A stretch of DNA of 64,000 bases from Phototrophicaceae bacterium (GTDB taxonomy: Bacteria > Chloroflexota > Anaerolineae > Aggregatilineales > Phototrophicaceae). Numbering within the stretch: the first letter of the stretch is position 1; each line of letters begins with the position of its first letter. The notes under the pieces are model-generated. The model was not told the origin of the DNA. It did not search any database and was given only the letters and a program-made list of their open reading frames with translations. The position numbers and the translations under genes are program-made. Location: contig CBDCXX010000002.1 of assembly GCA_965223965.1 (NCBI GenBank), positions 56,132 to 120,131 on the forward strand, written 5' to 3'. Below, in pieces: positions 20,906-29,819 of this stretch.

Positions 20906-21588
20906 CGCGCGGCTTCTTCACAATGATCGCGGTGCTGGTCGCGCTGGCCACCGCGCTGCTCACGCTGACCGGCCTGTTGCTGGAACAGCAGCCGCTGGTG
21001 CTCGGCGGCGCGCTGGCAACCTGGGAGCCGCTCATCCTTGAGTGGAGCGCCACGCTGCTGCAAGTATTCTCGATCAGCGTCGCCGTGACCATCATCATCG
21101 GAATCTTCAATCTCTTGCTGGTGCATTCGCGGCGCGCCGGTCGGCGCGAAGCGGGCTGCGGCTACAGCTTCATCCTTTTCCTCAGCGCTGCGACAGTCAT
21201 CGCGCTGACCTACCTGGAGCGCGAGAATCTGATCAGCACCGGGGCGGAATGGCGCGACCTGTTGCTGGAGCAGGTGCAGGTCACGGTCGAATCCTCGCTG
21301 GCCGGGCTATTACTGTTCGCGCTGGTGTATGGCGCCTCGCGCGTGATGTCCCTGCGCACCAGCGGCTGGGGCGCGCTCTTCGTGGGCACCGTGCTGGTTG
21401 TGCTGGCGGCTTCGTTGCCGCTGCCGCTACTGGCGGTGCTGATCCCGGTGCGCGACTGGCTGCTGGCGGTGCCGGTCAATGCGGGCGCGCGCGGCATCCT
21501 GCTGGGCATCGCGCTGGCCACCATCGTTGCCGGCGCCCGCGTCCTCATCGGTCAGGATCGCAGCCTGCGGGGCGAGCGCGATGACTGA
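20902..21588 (+). CDS. Hypothetical polytopic membrane protein
   Basis: 228 aa with about 6 hydrophobic segments. Start overlaps the previous stop (20902-20905) and stop overlaps the next start (21581-21588). Confidence 0.55.
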   Translation: MTRGFFTMIAVLVALATALLTLTGLLLEQQPLVLGGALATWEPLILEWSATLLQVFSISVAVTIIIGIFNLLLVHSRRAGRREAGCGYSFILFLSAATVIALTYLERENLISTGAEWRDLLLEQVQVTVESSLAGLLLFALVYGASRVMSLRTSGWGALFVGTVLVVLAASLPLPLLAVLIPVRDWLLAVPVNAGARGILLGIALATIVAGARVLIGQDRSLRGERDD

Positions 21589-23116
21589 CGCTTATGGTCA
21601 GGGCTCGGGCGACGATGCCTGGCCGCCAGGCGGCGGAGACCCCCCCCTGGCCTGGTCCGGAGACCCTTCCACCTCCCCCTTGCACGCCCTGCTCGGCCAG
21701 CTGAGCGACCGCCCGCTTGGTCGTCTGACCAGGCGGCTGCGCCGGCTGCGCAGGCGCAGCGAACAGCTGGCCCGCCGCGATCCTTCGTCCGTGCCCAACG
21801 TCTTCGCGCCCGAGGTCGGGGCCGTCGCCAGCAGCGCGCCGGGCCGTCGGCGGCGGCGACGACGCCTGAGCCTGAGTGGCGACCGCTTCCTCATTTCGCT
21901 GGTGCTGGCGGGCGGCATGCTGTTGCCCTTCTACAGCGCGCAGACGCGCCTGGGCGAGAGCGCCCCGCTCGAATTCGCTGCTGACAGCCCGCAGCAGACG
22001 CTCTACGAGGCGCTTGATGCGCTGCAACCTGGCGACCTGGTGCTGGTCGGGATGGAATACGGCCCGACTGCCGCCGGCGAGCTGGACACGGTCGCCAGCG
22101 TGCTCTTGCGCCACATCCTGCTGCGGCGCGCGCTGCCGGTCGTCGTCAGCCGCTACCCGGTCACGCTCCTGCGCGCGGAGCATATGTTGCTGGAGCTGGG
22201 CGCCGCCGCTGCGCCGCTGCTGCAGCTGCTGGAACGCGAGGACCCCCTGCTCGCCAACGGGGACTGGTTTGTGACGCGCTTCCTGGCAGGCGACATGGCG
22301 GGCCTGCGCTCGCTGACGATGAATATTGAAAAGCAGCTGGCCAAAGACCTGCGCGGCGCCCCGACCGGCCTGACGGTGGATGAACTGGAGGACTTTGCGC
22401 GCGTCCTCGTCGTCGCCGAGCGGCCCGGAGATCTGCGGCAATGGGCGGAGCAGATCGCCCCGCTGGCCGATAGTAATTTGCTGGGCGCCGTGGGTCAGGC
22501 CGCTGCGCCGTTGACCCGACCCTGGCTGGAGGTGGCGCTGGCGGGCATGATAACCGGCTTCCGCGATGCGCTGACCTATGACTCGCAGCTGCAGGGCCTT
22601 GAGGTGATTGTCGGGCCGCCCTCAGCGCCCAGGAATGTTATGGCGCTGAGTCGCGATGAAAGCATCGCGTTGACCTGGGACCCGCCCCTGTCCGACGGCG
22701 GCGCGTCAATCACCGGCTATTCCATACGCCGCCAGTCTACGCCCTACCTGACGTGGGTGGAAGTCGCCGCTACGGGCACAAGTCACACGCTGACGTCTCT
22801 CGATAACGGCACGTCCTACGACATCCAGGTGCGCGCCAGCAACAGCGAGGGCGACAGCGGCTGGAGTGAACAGATAACCGCCACACCGCGGACGGTGCCA
22901 TCGCAGCCCCGCTCGCTTGACCTGACTGCTGGCGACACGAGCGTGGCGGCCAGCTGGCAAGAGCCCGCCGCCGACGGCGGATCGGTCGTGACCGGGTATC
23001 GGCTGCGCTGGCGCACAGGCAGCGAGGACTGGCTTGGCGCAAACACGACCGAAACGGAATTCACTGCGGCGGGACTCACGAACGGCGATACTTACGAGTT
23101 CCAGGTGCGCGCCAGT
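21581..23116 (+). CDS. Hypothetical protein with two C-terminal fibronectin type III modules, truncated at the 23.11-kb breakpoint
   Basis: ATG 21581 within track ORF 21479-23356. Arg-rich segment, TM segment, then PSAPRNV..LTWDPPLSDGGASITGY...YDIQVRASNSEGDSGWS and PSQPRSL...GGSVVTGY...YEFQVRAS (FN3). The second module lacks its last strand. Confidence 0.6.
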
Positions 23117-23356
23117 GTCTATCTGGGCATGGCGCGCGACATGGCGCGCAGGCTTGCCTTGCAGACCGTTCTGGGCAGCGCTCAGCTTGTGCAGGAGACC
23201 GGGCGGCATCCGGCCGAACTTAAGGATATGGTAACCTCGCCGGGAGGTACGACGATAGCGGCGCTTCGAGCGATGGAGAGCGGCGGTTTCCGCGCTGCCA
23301 TATTTGATGGCGTTATCGCGGCATTCGACAAGTCGGAAGAACTAGGGAAGAAGTAA
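23117..23356 (+). CDS. proC: Pyrroline-5-carboxylate reductase, C-terminal fragment only (about 79 aa)
   Basis: VYLGMARDMARRLALQTVLGSAQLVQETGRHPAELKDMVTSPGGTTIAALRAMESGGFRAAI is the conserved ProC dimerisation domain. The Rossmann domain is absent. It sits in frame with the preceding FN3 ORF and is followed by yggT. Confidence 0.8.
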   Translation, partial: VYLGMARDMARRLALQTVLGSAQLVQETGRHPAELKDMVTSPGGTTIAALRAMESGGFRAAIFDGVIAAFDKSEELGKK

Positions 23357-25895: not shown

Positions 25896-26369
25896 TTATG
25901 AGTTCATATAGTCATTTAAGAAGTCGTCTCTGTGAATGACTTGGACTTCTTGTCGGGATTCAAAGGCTTCAAGCAAGCCTTTGTCGGTGGTAATCAGCAG
26001 GTCCGCGCCCGCTGAGTAATATGTCTGGATCAGATATACATCCTCTTCGGGAGCGGCGGCGATTGCGTCTTGGGGCGTGGCGTCCGTAACATCGTCGGGT
26101 TGCAGAATTACGCACTTGCTCGGGTCAATTATCAAGCTCCGTACAAGCTTGCTTAACCGCCGTATATCAGGGGCGCTATGTGTCATGAGTTCATAAGCTT
26201 TTGTCATCCATGGTTTGCCGTTCAGGGCGGCTAACTTGTCTCGCCCTTGCGCGAACTGGGTAAGGAATCTGGCAGTTTCCTGTCTCTTGGGTTGACCGTT
26301 CTCACCTTTAATGTCTTGAAACAACCACTCGTTTATGACCAGCAGTTTAGTAGGCGAGTCATCCAACAT
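25896..26369 (-). CDS. Hypothetical protein, possibly PIN-like nuclease fold; partner of the upstream ATPase
   Basis: 157 aa. Its ATG abuts the stop of 26370-27653. N-terminal LLVINEWLF and C-terminal GADLLITTDKGLL resemble first and last PIN strands, which is weak evidence. Visibly AT-richer than its surroundings. Confidence 0.35.
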   Translation of the reverse strand: MLDDSPTKLLVINEWLFQDIKGENGQPKRQETARFLTQFAQGRDKLAALNGKPWMTKAYELMTHSAPDIRRLSKLVRSLIIDPSKCVILQPDDVTDATPQDAIAAAPEEDVYLIQTYYSAGADLLITTDKGLLEAFESRQEVQVIHRDDFLNDYMNS

Positions 26370-27653
26370 CTACACTCCAAGAAAAGCTTTCATATCTTCA
26401 AGCTCGCCCTCTATGAAGCTTGCAAGGCCGCCTTCGACTTGCCCGTTTTCGTTCACTTGCTGACGCTGGAACTTGGACTCTTTTCCTTCCTTGGTAACCA
26501 GATACATGGCCAAGTCGTCCGGGGAGTGTATGCCCTCGGCAACAAGCGCCAATAGAGACATGACGAACTGCTCGCTGTGGGTCGAGATTATCAGGCGCTT
26601 GTCGCCATTTTCTCCCACTATATCTGCCAACGCCCGCGCCAGCCTCCGAATGGCAGAGGGGTGAAGATGGATTTCCGGCTCTTCGATGCACACGACGCCT
26701 GCATCGGGGTGAAGCGCCTTCGCAAGCATATACACCAGTTGGTTGACGCCAAAACCTTCGTTCACTAGCGACGCGCCTAGCCCAGTCTTTCTGTCTATCG
26801 AGTCCAGGGAAAATTGATTGGAGCTTGAACCTATATCTGCCCTGATATGAAAATTCCTGTTCAGTATCATTTCCATGTGCTGGTTAACTGCATATTCAAG
26901 ATGCCTATTAGTAGCAAGCAGGTCGGTTACTTCTCGTTCGATAGGAGGGGTATATTCGCCATGCCCCTGATTACCCAGAGAGTACCAAGGTTGAAAAAAT
27001 CCCCTACCTAGTGGAACAAAACTTACCCCTCGTAACTCTGCTGAGGGCAGGTTCAGCATTTCGATTGCTGTCTCTGATACATACTCTAGGTCAGGCGGTA
27101 GCCGTGCCTCATCATCATAAGGCGAGGGTGTAATGTCTTCGGTACTTATGCCGTTCCATTGGAAGATTTTATCGGACTGACTCACGCCAAATAATTCGTG
27201 ATTTCTTCTTTTGTCAAGGTAGTTGACTGGCAGCATCGCCCTCAGCATATCTTTACTGAACTCAGGAACATCTCGGTTCTCTTCTGTGATTCCGATTCGA
27301 AAAGAGCCAGAAGCATCGTTCAGACAAGCAATCCTATAGTCTATCTCCGTCTCAATAACAAAGCCATTGGTGCCTGAATTCTCATTAGGAGATTCTATTG
27401 TTATGCCTAACTCCAATTCATTGTTCGTATTGTGGTCGAAGACAACCTCTTCAAACGCCCCCAAACTGGTAAATCCATAGTTGAAGAACTCTTGAATATG
27501 TTGAATAGGATTGTTAACTATATTCTTCAGCGTCAGCGGCGCATATAGCGCGCTGGACTTGCCTGTGCCGTTATGACCGTATAGCACGGTGATAGGCGCA
27601 AGTTCCAGGTCCAACTGCTTTATGGAGCGGAAGTTCTTGATGTGGAGTTTCAT
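26370..27653 (-). CDS. ABC/SMC-like AAA ATPase (AAA_21-type, defence-associated style)
   Basis: ATG 27653 inside track ORF 26370-27773 (MKLHIKNFRSIKQLDLEL). Walker A GHNGTGKSS, signature-like NEGFGVNQL, Walker B VVCIEEPEIHLHP, H-loop STHS. Confidence 0.7.
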   Translation of the reverse strand: MKLHIKNFRSIKQLDLELAPITVLYGHNGTGKSSALYAPLTLKNIVNNPIQHIQEFFNYGFTSLGAFEEVVFDHNTNNELELGITIESPNENSGTNGFVIETEIDYRIACLNDASGSFRIGITEENRDVPEFSKDMLRAMLPVNYLDKRRNHELFGVSQSDKIFQWNGISTEDITPSPYDDEARLPPDLEYVSETAIEMLNLPSAELRGVSFVPLGRGFFQPWYSLGNQGHGEYTPPIEREVTDLLATNRHLEYAVNQHMEMILNRNFHIRADIGSSSNQFSLDSIDRKTGLGASLVNEGFGVNQLVYMLAKALHPDAGVVCIEEPEIHLHPSAIRRLARALADIVGENGDKRLIISTHSEQFVMSLLALVAEGIHSPDDLAMYLVTKEGKESKFQRQQVNENGQVEGGLASFIEGELEDMKAFLGV

Positions 27654-27750
27654 TGCGGGGCCCCTCATACACGGCTTGTCGCCACCACTTTGTCCGGGCA
27701 GGCGCTTAAAGCCAACCTCATCTAGCATATCACCTGGCATTGGAACTCGC

Positions 27751-28545
27751 TCACACCTGCGATGTGACCTCACCCGCCGTGGCGGTGTGCAGGCTGCCGT
27801 CTGACAGGCGCACCAGCAGGTTGCCCTGCTCGTCCACGGACTCTGCGACGCCTTCGATGACCTCGTGCTGCGAGCGCAGGCTTATCGCGCGGCCCAGCGT
27901 GTCCAGCATTTCCGACCAGTCGGTGGTCAGAGACATACCTGAACGAACTGCTGTGTAAGCGTCATCGAAGTGTTCCAGCAATGTCTGGAGCACCGGCGTT
28001 CGGTTGCGACGCTGCCCGGTTTCACGGTAGAGGCTGGTCGAGATGCCGGCGATCTCGGCGTAGAGTGAGGGATCGAAGTTGACATTGACGCCGATGCCTA
28101 TGATGGCGCAAACGGAGTCCTCGTCCTCGATGGCAGTCTCGATGAGGATGCCTGATATCTTCAGCCCGCCCACGCGCACGTCGTTGGGCCACTTGATGGT
28201 GGGCTTCAGATCCGCAGTGTCGGCAACCGTGCGCGCAACGGCAAGCGTCGCGGCCATATTCATGTACGGCAACTGCTTCGCAGTAGGAGTCAGAATGACC
28301 GAGAAGGACAGGTTTTCGCCGCGCGGCGACACCCATGGGCGGTTGAAGCGCCCCCTGCCTGCCGTCTGCTCCTCGGCGATGACCACCGTGCCTTCCGGCA
28401 TGCCCTCTGCCGCAAGCCGCCGCGCCTCGTCCATCGTAGAGCCGATGATGTCGTAGTGATGGATACGACGGCCGATGATGCGGCGCGAGAGCGCGCTTTC
28501 AAGCGCGGGGATGTCTAGGTCTGATGCGTGGGCGGCGTCTGGCAT
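27751..28545 (-). CDS. birA: Biotin--[acetyl-CoA-carboxylase] ligase (no N-terminal HTH)
   Basis: 264 aa. GRGRFNRPWVSPRGENLSFS and KWPNDV motifs, C-terminal SH3-like domain. Confidence 0.85.
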   Translation of the reverse strand: MPDAAHASDLDIPALESALSRRIIGRRIHHYDIIGSTMDEARRLAAEGMPEGTVVIAEEQTAGRGRFNRPWVSPRGENLSFSVILTPTAKQLPYMNMAATLAVARTVADTADLKPTIKWPNDVRVGGLKISGILIETAIEDEDSVCAIIGIGVNVNFDPSLYAEIAGISTSLYRETGQRRNRTPVLQTLLEHFDDAYTAVRSGMSLTTDWSEMLDTLGRAISLRSQHEVIEGVAESVDEQGNLLVRLSDGSLHTATAGEVTSQV

Positions 28546-28601: not shown

Positions 28602-29819
28602 TCAGCGTCTTCCTAGCAGTCGGCGCAGTTCAGCCATCGCCGGATGAGTAGTTGATACCGCGGACGGCATTTTCTCGTAGCGTTCGAGCAATTCCGACTC
28701 TGAGAATCGCTGCGGCCAGTCTAGGTTGAGTGTGAAGTTTCCCTGGTCATCAATGAGGATAGCCCCTAGTTCCGATAACCCAAGTACATCTCTAAACGCC
28801 GCTCTCTCAGGATATTTGAGGTCTTTATAATGTGGAAACAAAGTCGCATATGTAATCGAACCACCGTCTATTAAAATATCCAAGATTTGAAGCTGTCGTT
28901 CTACTAAAACCCGGCGGCGCGGACTACGCAACTGGCCGAAAAGTGACCGAGCGAACTCGCGGAACAAGATGCGACGATGGTTTTCAGCGATTTCATCAGT
29001 CAGCGAGTTGCATCTGTCGATTATTGCTCTGAGCGCAAACAACAAAAACGGCGTGATATTATGCCCGTTCTGCCGCGACTGATATAGCGATGCCAGATAC
29101 TCGTCCTTATGTTCGTAGTAATAGTTCGAGAGGCTGACCATAACCACATCGTTGACATCAGCGCGCCGTAGCATAAATGCCTCAAGCGCGCGCGCAGTGC
29201 GACCGTTGCCATTTCCGAAAGGATGCATTGCGCCGATGTGGTAATGTACAGCAACGGCTTGGATAATCGGGTCGTGCTGGCCGAATGAGCCTGCAATAGC
29301 CAAACATAAGCCGTGGAAGGCAGTCTGGCACTCGCTGCCACCTCCAGCGCCCCGACAAGTTGGCGTTCCGAATGTTACATTCCATCCGTCGGGACGCAAT
29401 GCCCCTGGTTCACAGTGGTCATCGTCGCAGCCGGCTACAATTCGTTGATGGATCTCCCTGATGAACTCGGAAGTTACAGGGCGTTCCGCAGGTTGCGTTT
29501 GCAACCAGCGATAGGTGGCATCAGCACATTTCAACTGTCGCTGGGAATGGGTAAGACCAGATTGCTGGGGTGATGCCGAGGAAAATACCTCGTCCTGTTC
29601 GCGTTGAGTGAACTCAGCGCCTTCTATGCGCGAAGTTCCCGCTGCTTCCAGCCGCAGTTGTTCCTCGTGAGCTTGCTCAATCCATTGGTGCAAGTAAGGC
29701 ATTTGCCGCAGGACGGCTGCGGCAGTTTTCGCCTCAACTAGAAGATTGAACACAGCTGATGGATCGTAGCGTATCCAGTGGTGAGGGATGATGTATCGCC
29801 TGACATTTTCGGATGTCAT
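28602..29819 (-). CDS. Fic family protein with an N-terminal auto-inhibitory motif (class II-like)
   Basis: 405 aa. Fic motif HPFGNGNGRTAR. TSRIEG matches the (S/T)xxxE(G/N) inhibitory helix and lies N-terminal to the core. Confidence 0.85.
   Translation of the reverse strand: MTSENVRRYIIPHHWIRYDPSAVFNLLVEAKTAAAVLRQMPYLHQWIEQAHEEQLRLEAAGTSRIEGAEFTQREQDEVFSSASPQQSGLTHSQRQLKCADATYRWLQTQPAERPVTSEFIREIHQRIVAGCDDDHCEPGALRPDGWNVTFGTPTCRGAGGGSECQTAFHGLCLAIAGSFGQHDPIIQAVAVHYHIGAMHPFGNGNGRTARALEAFMLRRADVNDVVMVSLSNYYYEHKDEYLASLYQSRQNGHNITPFLLFALRAIIDRCNSLTDEIAENHRRILFREFARSLFGQLRSPRRRVLVERQLQILDILIDGGSITYATLFPHYKDLKYPERAAFRDVLGLSELGAILIDDQGNFTLNLDWPQRFSESELLERYEKMPSAVSTTHPAMAELRRLLGRR

Follow-up and report, generated by a model that had tools for sequence, protein, structure and literature searches.

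An ABC ATPase and a PIN-fold protein form a probable accessory immune module between birA and SDR genes in a Phototrophicaceae bacterium

Introduction

In bacterial immunity, the combination of an ATP-binding cassette (ABC) ATPase with a nuclease is a prominent theme. HEC-03 (Hma-embedded candidate 03; Pseudomonas cichorii WP_025259138 and WP_025259137), described by Payne et al. (bioRxiv 10.1101/2024.01.29.577857), is a validated system of an ABC ATPase and a 157-amino-acid (aa) PIN protein; both genes are needed to protect Escherichia coli from phage, and the system is apparently toxic on induction (10.1101/2024.01.29.577857). Menshen comprises NsnABC (Millman 2022; Li et al. NAR 2025, PMC12065111), of which NsnC has a PIN-like N-domain to which NsnB is predicted to bind through its tail; in NsnB an arginine replaces the Q motif and GxG replaces SGG (PMC12065111). 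Here we examine a gene pair of similar architecture, an ABC ATPase gene followed by a small PIN-fold gene, in a 64,000-nucleotide (nt) stretch of a Phototrophicaceae bacterium (GCA_965223965.1, contig CBDCXX010000002.1, positions 56,132 to 120,131), hereafter the window.

We consider it probable that the two genes make up an accessory immune module directed against phages, in which an ABC ATPase is combined with a nuclease effector. An earlier note, made from the letters of the window and their translations, had called the pair a candidate defence module, and this reading gains support from the folds of the two proteins, their strict pairing, their accessory status and the defence loci in which relatives are found. 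The same note held that the pair fits no known ATPase-based system; this view is out of date given the composition of HEC-03 and the PIN-like partner of NsnB.

Results

The ATPase is closest to NsnB and the HEC-03 ATPase

Coordinates of all features are collected in Table 1. The larger product matches the Pfam families AAA_15 (6.9e-25) and AAA_21 (3.3e-17). Its best match among the PADLOC models is Menshen NsnB (3e-38, 130 bits), aligned in a single full-length stretch over positions 4-340 of the 345 in the model. The HEC-03 ATPase model also matches (1.3e-30, 105 bits), in two stretches of which the best covers aa 263-421, as do PDC-M55A, AriA (5.7e-28), GajA and PtuA; the HEC-03 score is no higher than those of NsnB, PDC-M55A or AriA. 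A BLASTP comparison with the HEC-03 ATPase, whose sequence was taken with that of its partner from supplementary table 2 of 10.1101/2024.01.29.577857, gave 26% identity over the full length (E 1e-17), and on the strength of sequence similarity we regard the two ATPases as homologous. An AlphaFold2 (AF2) model from 40 homologues has a predicted local distance difference test score (pLDDT) of 83 and lacks a coiled coil, and its best Foldseek matches are the SMC head 5h68, Rad50, PtuA and OLD. The protein is therefore AAA_21/SMC-like in the style of defence ATPases, as first proposed, and translation places the previously recognized Walker A (GHNGTGKSS), Walker B and H-loop (STHS) motifs where they are expected.

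Conservation divides the protein sharply. The ATPase core shows column conservation of 0.7-0.9, against 0.14-0.46 with insertions and deletions in a segment that we term Insert 1, in which the AF2 model has beta strands at aa 80-166. Positions 401-420 of the C-terminal tail are again well conserved (0.85), and we propose, by analogy with the NsnB-NsnC models (PMC12065111), that this tail may be the docking site for the PIN protein. The arginine R217 of the PLGRGF motif is probably equivalent in position to the arginine that replaces the glutamine of the Q motif in NsnB. A DUF3696 tail was not detected by Pfam in the ATPase, nor in the precomputed domains of 120 homologues.

The small protein has a PIN fold and its family keeps three of the four acidic positions

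The AF2 model of the 157-aa protein (pLDDT 90.5; predicted template modelling score 0.86) contains a single PIN-fold domain and nothing else, with the topology b1-a1-a2-b2-a3-a4-b3-a5-a6-b4-a7-b5-a8. Its best Foldseek matches in the PDB are VapC4 (5h4g), HARP (7og5/8kda), which is a PIN-type RNase P, and VapC (7vwo), with probability 1.0, template modelling scores of 0.5-0.65 and E values of 2e-3 to 2e-2. The PIN superfamily fold is a Rossmann-like three-layer alpha/beta/alpha arrangement around a five-stranded parallel sheet, and its canonical site is a conserved acidic quartet (D-E-D-D) placed where strands end C-terminally, with a TxD motif being typical. Both the predicted topology and the Foldseek matches place the small protein in this superfamily. 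The earlier note had seen a weak PIN resemblance at the two ends of the protein (LLVINEWLF and GADLLITTDKGLL, both of which are present) and had named a non-nuclease fold as an outcome that would speak against it; structure search returned a PIN fold.

Sequence profiles carry a fainter signal in the same direction. TIGR00305, a PIN toxin model, weakly matches aa 108-134 around the TTD motif (E 0.12), and sub-threshold matches to PIN_3 occur in 10 of 103 family members (best E 0.032) and to PIN_9 in 4 of 103. No curated PIN model matches the small protein above threshold, and a search of PDB sequences with the family profile gave chance-level matches only. With PADLOC, which the earlier note had recommended running, the ATPase matches the NsnB and HEC-03 models and the small protein matches none.

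A profile search of 1.84 billion representative proteins recovered at least 466 clusters of the PIN-partner family at 50% identity, and nearly all of the 150 best listed clusters are about 150 aa long. Across 138 family members, position 13 is Asn in 80 and Asp in 54, and E14 (127), W15 (133), D19 (126), K57 (138), Y112 (134) and L113 (136) are strongly conserved, alongside the residues of the EEDVY and TTD motifs given in Table 1. Judged by place in the fold, acidic residues occupy three of the four canonical PIN positions, namely the first, third and fourth, and nuclease activity is likely.

The two genes are strictly paired

An ATPase gene lies directly upstream of the small gene in all 23 loci from GTDB species genomes, which are mostly Dehalococcoidia with one locus each from Thermodesulfobacteriota, Acidobacteria, Calditrichaeota and Alphaproteobacteria. 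A metagenome scan with a 20-sequence alignment of the PIN family gave the same order in 34 of 34 informative loci. The co-occurrence in other genomes that had been suggested as a check is thus borne out in every informative case. At no point was a small antitoxin seen upstream of the PIN gene, this place being taken by an ABC ATPase of the 427-aa type in all 57 informative loci. The pairing recurs in loci L024-L030, which were reached through ATPase homologues of only about 45% identity, and pairwise identities in one protein correlate with those in the other (r 0.82). When every neighbouring gene in the 23 genome loci was clustered, there was no conserved third gene beside the pair outside two syntenic Dehalococcoidia backgrounds, where the shared neighbours are housekeeping genes (the suf operon, birA and the short-chain dehydrogenase/reductase (SDR) genes). 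A variant is seen in L027 (L027:7313-7645), L028 and L029, where 115 nt separate the ATPase gene from a small gene that encodes only 110 aa, corresponding to profile positions 15-110; these are probably decaying copies.

In the window the ATPase stop codon TAG directly abuts the ATG of the 157-aa gene (...GGAGTGTAGATGTTGGAT...), so the absence of a gap noticed before holds. Neither gene is a chance open reading frame: close homologues of the small protein form 49 clusters, and the ATPase has more than 1000 homologues. We place the ATPase start at 27653, because MKLHIKNF is the beginning of more than 100 homologues and the corresponding ATG has a GAGGGG ribosome-binding site 7 nt ahead of it. 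This rules out a longer reading frame of 467 aa, called mechanically from a GTG at 27773, which would overlap birA.

The pair is accessory and lies in defence loci in other phyla

Pfam identifies BirA (BPL_LplA_LipB and BPL_C) on one side of the pair and two SDR proteins on the other, in agreement with the initial description of the site. The lower guanine-plus-cytosine (GC) content of the pair was also described correctly: 0.483, compared with 0.629 for birA, 0.631 and 0.634 for the two SDR genes and 0.601 for the window as a whole. The pair lies 6-13 points under its own locus in 21 of 21 loci checked.

In loci L065-L070 the same backbone is found with the pair absent, and this direct adjoining of birA and the SDR gene in related Dehalococcoidia genomes shows that the pair is accessory. 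The empty sites have a birA-SDR spacer of 24-140 nt with no recognizable scar. Since sites are empty at SDR identities of 92%, 78% and 76%, and L014 carries the pair despite an SDR identity of only 75%, presence of the pair is polymorphic and does not simply follow phylogeny.

Dehalococcoidia hold the pair in two settings, either birA-pair-SDR-SDR, as in the window, or directly upstream of sufBCDSU. The latter is found in a second Dehalococcoidia lineage (L008-L011, L015-L020 and L023), in which the pair always immediately precedes the sufB-sufC-sufD-sufS-sufU operon. In the relative L002, about 2.5 kb (L002:8500-10970) with an 821-aa open reading frame on the opposite strand separates the PIN gene from the SDR gene.

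Outside Dehalococcoidia the context is overtly defensive. A BREX (bacteriophage exclusion) locus, L055, has the order BrxC, N-terminal part of PglX, pair, PDC-M28ABC, C-terminal part of PglX, and in L048 the pair is followed by the same C-terminal part of PglX and by PglZ. L012 carries in a row (L012:68-5520) a type I HsdS gene, the ATPase-PIN pair and a complete HEC-01A/B system (3e-184, 5.5e-76). Type IIG restriction-modification genes stand beside the pair in L013 and L033, the latter with an SNF2 helicase gene as well. Upstream neighbours elsewhere include HsdS and the N-terminal part of PglX, together with pgi and a TatD-like gene. The earlier note had suggested checking whether the pair sits in defence islands; in other phyla it is embedded in BREX and restriction loci, but in the window genome it is not in a defence island and sits in a housekeeping backbone.

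Two details of these loci deserve mention in their own right. The pglX gene of L055 is in two parts (L055:3015-15814), with a 405-aa product corresponding to PglX model positions 253-619 and a 708-aa product from position 628 on, and the five genes between them are the ATPase-PIN pair and PDC-M28A/B/C. In L012 two ABC-ATPase modules are stacked within one restriction locus.

Alleles at the birA/SDR site are mosaic

Comparison of the window with L003 shows a backbone (birA, SDR) of 94-100% nt identity and an ATPase in which aa 1-75 are 95% and aa 201-427 are 93% identical, compared with 44% for aa 76-200; in the PIN protein aa 1-88 are 53% and aa 89-157 are 83% identical (aa identity). The pattern differs for L071, with a backbone of 92-99% nt identity. 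Here the ATPase body including Insert 1 (27516-26557) is 95-100% identical at the nt level, the tail 82-84%, PIN aa 1-88 62-64% and PIN aa 89-157 85-87%. The closest relative, L072, has a backbone of 92-100% nt identity and a pair of 90-100%, mostly 99-100%.

Over 11 syntenic alleles, mean identity is 28% in Insert 1, 49% in the N-terminal half of the PIN protein and 68-82% in the rest of the ATPase, and the pair evolves far faster than its flanks. From allele to allele, identity in the ATPase tail follows identity in the N-terminal half of the PIN protein closely (r 0.87) and identity in the adjacent ATPase core much less so (r 0.56). Physical linkage could contribute to this covariation, which also fits a co-evolving interface. 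Taken together, the allele pattern resembles the signature of an arms race, with Insert 1 as one hypervariable cassette and the ATPase tail with the PIN N-terminal half as the other.

Neighbouring genes and other features of the site

The fic gene that had been described as lying next to the pair is indeed present nearby (28602-29819), but is not directly adjacent, as birA intervenes. It is found in L001, L003 and L071 and is absent from L002, L004-L007 and the empty-site genomes; it is an accessory insertion in its own right, with birA between it and the pair. Its C-terminal part (28716-28940) is 57-66% identical to L071 at the nt level and the remainder 76-98%. In L072 a canonical VapC gene (Pfam PIN PF01850, 149 aa; L072:26-475) fills the fic slot upstream of birA, and both sides of birA are therefore variable accessory slots. 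An empty-site genome has a DUF2283 gene and a 395-aa nSTAND1/AAA_16 ATPase gene in its SDR region (L070:5898-8209). The birA/SDR backbone collects different accessory genes. HEPN-MNT toxin-antitoxin pairs are found near the pair in L026 and L027.

Consensus scans, which are weak for this phylum, found a sole strong sigma-70-like match (11/12) upstream of birA (28582-28553) and no intrinsic terminator belonging to the pair. Further away, the window encodes only the C-terminal half of proC (P5CR aa 131-255), in frame with an upstream open reading frame carrying two fn3 domains (21479-23356, plus strand, break near 22988). In relatives proC is full-length, with pdxA and ribonucleotide reductase after it, whereas no pdxA was found in the window; the proC break is either a synteny break or a chimeric assembly.

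Table 1. Positions in the window of the gene pair, its motifs and segments, and the fic gene
Feature	Position	Strand	Basis
ABC ATPase gene (AAA_15/AAA_21; NsnB/HEC-03-like), 427 aa	26370..27653, including stop codon	(-)	Pfam, PADLOC, BLASTP, AF2/Foldseek
Walker A GHNGTGKSS, aa 26-34	27552..27578	(-)	translation; G26, N28, G31, K32, S33 invariant in 40 homologues
Insert 1, hypervariable and beta-rich, aa 76-200; proposed sensor cassette	27054..27428	(-)	conservation, AF2, allele comparison
PLGRGF motif, aa 214-219, R217 at Q-loop position	26997..27014	(-)	R217, G218, F219 invariant
Signature-motif equivalent NEGFGVNQ, GxG for SGG	26739..26762	(-)	translation; N298, G300, G302, N304, Q305 invariant
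Walker B and D-loop VVCIEEPEIHLHP, aa 320-332	26658..26696	(-)	translation; E324 through P332 invariant (IEEPEIHLHP)
H-loop STHS, aa 357-360	26574..26585	(-)	translation; T358, H359, S360 invariant
ATPase C-terminal tail, aa 362-427: helix, beta hairpin, acidic helix EGELED; proposed PIN docking site	26373..26570	(-)	AF2 secondary structure
PIN-fold protein gene, 157 aa, proposed nuclease effector	25896..26369	(-)	AF2, Foldseek, weak PIN_3/PIN_9 matches
LVINEWL, end of beta 1: N13-E14-W15, first acidic position	26322..26342	(-)	conservation in 138 family members
Variable N-terminal half of PIN protein, helices a1-a4	26106..26324	(-)	allele comparison with L003 and L071
EEDVY: D110 at start of helix after beta 3, third acidic position	26034..26048	(-)	D110 138/138
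TTD after beta 4: D129, fourth acidic position	25983..25991	(-)	T127 125/138, T128 103/138, D129 134/138
birA-ATPase spacer, 97 nt, with GAGGGG ribosome-binding site	27654..27750	(-)	sequence reading
fic gene, far side of birA	28602..29819	(-)	Pfam Fic 1.1e-12, PADLOC SoFic 3.5e-40, GC 0.52

Discussion

We infer an anti-phage activity, a nuclease activity with RNA as its target, docking of the PIN protein on the ATPase tail, and which of the two proteins controls the other. In a scheme drawn by analogy with HEC-03, Menshen, PARIS and Septu, the ATPase, which resembles an SMC/Rad50 head without the coiled coil and belongs to the NsnB/HEC-03 branch, is probably oligomeric and would hold the PIN protein by its C-terminal tail and keep it inactive. 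The hypervariable, beta-rich Insert 1 would read a phage-derived cue, ATP binding or hydrolysis would then free or activate the PIN protein, and the released PIN protein would cut RNA, thereby halting the infected cell or the phage. A more specific proposal, which we put forward tentatively and regard as rather doubtful, is that these pairs form a distinct ATPase-PIN immune lineage unseen by PADLOC and Pfam, with a non-canonical PIN site (N/D-E, D19, K57, D110, D129). Specificity in this lineage may reside in two independently exchanging cassettes, with Insert 1 acting as the sensor and the ATPase tail plus PIN N-terminal half acting as an interface or as the target of a phage inhibitor.

A number of observations weigh against an immune module with a nuclease effector. 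The small protein belongs to no Pfam, PADLOC (E<=1) or PHROG family, and it has no significant sequence similarity to the PIN partner of HEC-03, with hhalign probabilities against WP_025259137 of 0.1% for a 19-sequence profile and 4.6% for a 103-sequence profile. The canonical second acidic residue, a Glu after beta 2, is missing, S52-P53 being found in its place with D19 and K57 conserved, the first acidic position is Asn in the window protein and in 58% of the family, and in Menshen the PIN-like domains to which the related NsnB binds are catalytically inactive (PMC12065111). PIN catalysis is for these reasons not assured. Other observations concern the site. Dehalococcoidia carry the pair at two fixed places among housekeeping genes, with which it is co-directional, a sigma-70-like promoter is absent from the 97-nt spacer by a consensus scan that is weak for this phylum, and there are no direct or inverted repeats around the pair, no adjoining integrase and no transfer RNA gene within the 64-kb window. 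Finally, no relatives on viral contigs turned up when IMG/VR was scanned with the family profile.

Several other explanations could account for parts of these data. The pair could be an addiction module resembling toxin-antitoxin systems, in which a PIN toxin is opposed by the ATPase as antitoxin or as a type IV-style counteractor and which is kept by post-segregational killing or genome stabilization with no dedicated anti-phage role. The VapC-like fold, the tight gapless operon, long persistence at fixed chromosomal sites and the apparent toxicity of induced HEC-03 (10.1101/2024.01.29.577857) would suit this explanation, as would the HEPN-MNT pairs nearby in L026 and L027 and the canonical VapC in the adjacent slot of L072. 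However, the upstream partner is not a small labile DNA-binding antitoxin but an ABC ATPase of 427 aa whose catalytic motifs are all fully conserved, addiction alone does not readily account for a hypervariable surface insert, and the pair is found repeatedly within BREX and restriction-modification loci. We therefore think this explanation unlikely, while noting that many toxin-antitoxin systems are themselves defensive, so that it overlaps with an immune function.

Alternatively, the PIN-like protein may be inactive, serving as an adaptor or nucleic-acid binder like the N-domain of NsnC. In that case the two genes would represent a Menshen-type module reduced by loss of its sensor NsnA and its toxin domain, or else a sensor or regulator that works with unlinked partners. 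This possibility draws on NsnB being the best PADLOC match of the ATPase and being predicted to bind inactive PIN domains by its tail (PMC12065111), on the covariation of the ATPase tail with the PIN N-terminal half, on the absence of the second canonical acidic residue and the Asn at position 13 in 80 of 138 members, and on the lack of a Pfam PIN model at threshold. It is at odds with E14, D110 and D129, which stand where the fold places a PIN active site and are retained by 92-100% of 138 diverse members, with the Asp at position 13 in 54 of 138 and with reports that the inactive Menshen PIN domains are without these residues. Furthermore, no DUF262 gene or conserved third gene was found beside the pair in any context. 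An inactive PIN protein accordingly seems improbable to us, and the size of the family, at least 466 clusters, together with its purifying selection, argues against a decaying remnant. A housekeeping role in nucleic-acid maintenance, in which these Dehalococcoidia would express a RecF/SbcC/Rad50-like ATPase and a nuclease together with birA and the SDR genes, would be consistent with the fold of SMC and Rad50 heads, the shared gene direction, the sole promoter-like site upstream of birA and stable synteny in at least 8 genomes, but is very improbable as the pair is missing in close relatives that share the backbone, lies about 12 GC points under its flanks, evolves far faster than them and is patchy across phyla, where it is embedded in BREX and restriction-modification loci.

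An immune module of an ABC ATPase and a PIN effector thus remains our preferred explanation, and through it the ATPase-PIN branch of HEC-03 and Menshen NsnBC would reach a large set of bacteria, most of them uncultured and SAR202-type Dehalococcoidia among them. As PADLOC v2, Pfam and NCBIfam would not call this family, counts of defence systems in these lineages come out too low. The mosaic alleles at a fixed site single out the diversifying parts, Insert 1 being a candidate for trigger sensing and the ATPase tail with the PIN N-terminal half a candidate for effector control. If the two-cassette proposal is true, natural alleles that differ in a single cassette (window versus L003, window versus L071) could map phage recognition by ABC-ATPase defence systems. 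The architecture and likely logic are known already, which makes the result more useful than surprising.

Comparison with known systems

The architecture of the pair is that of HEC-03, and with Menshen it shares a PIN-like fold encoded downstream of the ATPase; the pair resembles both but falls outside several of their profile-based definitions. More distant are the type II VapBC systems, with which it shares a VapC-like PIN fold and an effector of about 150 aa, but from which it differs in having a 427-aa ATPase gene upstream in place of a small VapB antitoxin, a PIN protein under all Pfam PIN thresholds and a non-canonical active-site pattern. In PARIS (AriA/AriB), Septu (PtuA/PtuB) and Gabija (GajA), as proposed here, an AAA_15/AAA_21 ABC ATPase controls a nuclease, the AriA, GajA and PtuA models match the window ATPase, and PtuA structures are among its fold matches. 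Their effectors are a DUF4435 TOPRIM, an HNH or a fused TOPRIM protein, whereas that of the window has a PIN fold, gives no AriB match and comes with no helicase partner, which agrees with the earlier note in excluding an HNH, TOPRIM/DUF4435 or helicase partner.

Menshen differs in that its NsnA gene (ParB-DUF262 and ParBDB) has no counterpart upstream of the window ATPase, where BirA is encoded, and in that NsnC carries a C-terminal toxin domain while the window partner consists of the PIN domain only. The window PIN protein keeps E14, D110 and D129, acidic residues that NsnC N-domains are reported to be without, Walker B has EN in NsnB and EE in the window ATPase, and the DUF3696 tail is not detected here. 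The two also have features in common. NsnB is the best profile match of the ATPase, the GxG signature and the arginine at the Q-loop position are common to both, the SMC head 5h68 is the top structural match for both (PMC12065111), and the gene directly downstream of the ATPase encodes a PIN-like fold whose sequence is strongly diversified in both systems, each of which is associated with BREX and type I restriction-modification loci.

Compared with HEC-03, besides the dissimilar PIN partners (among 103 members of the PIN family, PADLOC found neither a HEC-03 PIN match at E<=10 nor an NsnC match), Walker B is EE in the window ATPase where HEC-03 has EQ, the window PIN protein has N-E at the first acidic position where HEC-03 has E-T-N, and Insert 1 is unrelated. 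The two systems nonetheless share GFGVxQ (GFGVSQ in HEC-03), ExPEIHLHPS and HSE motifs in their ATPases, both occur embedded within other defence systems, and both are two-gene operons in which an ABC ATPase gene is followed by one for a stand-alone 157-aa PIN-fold protein.

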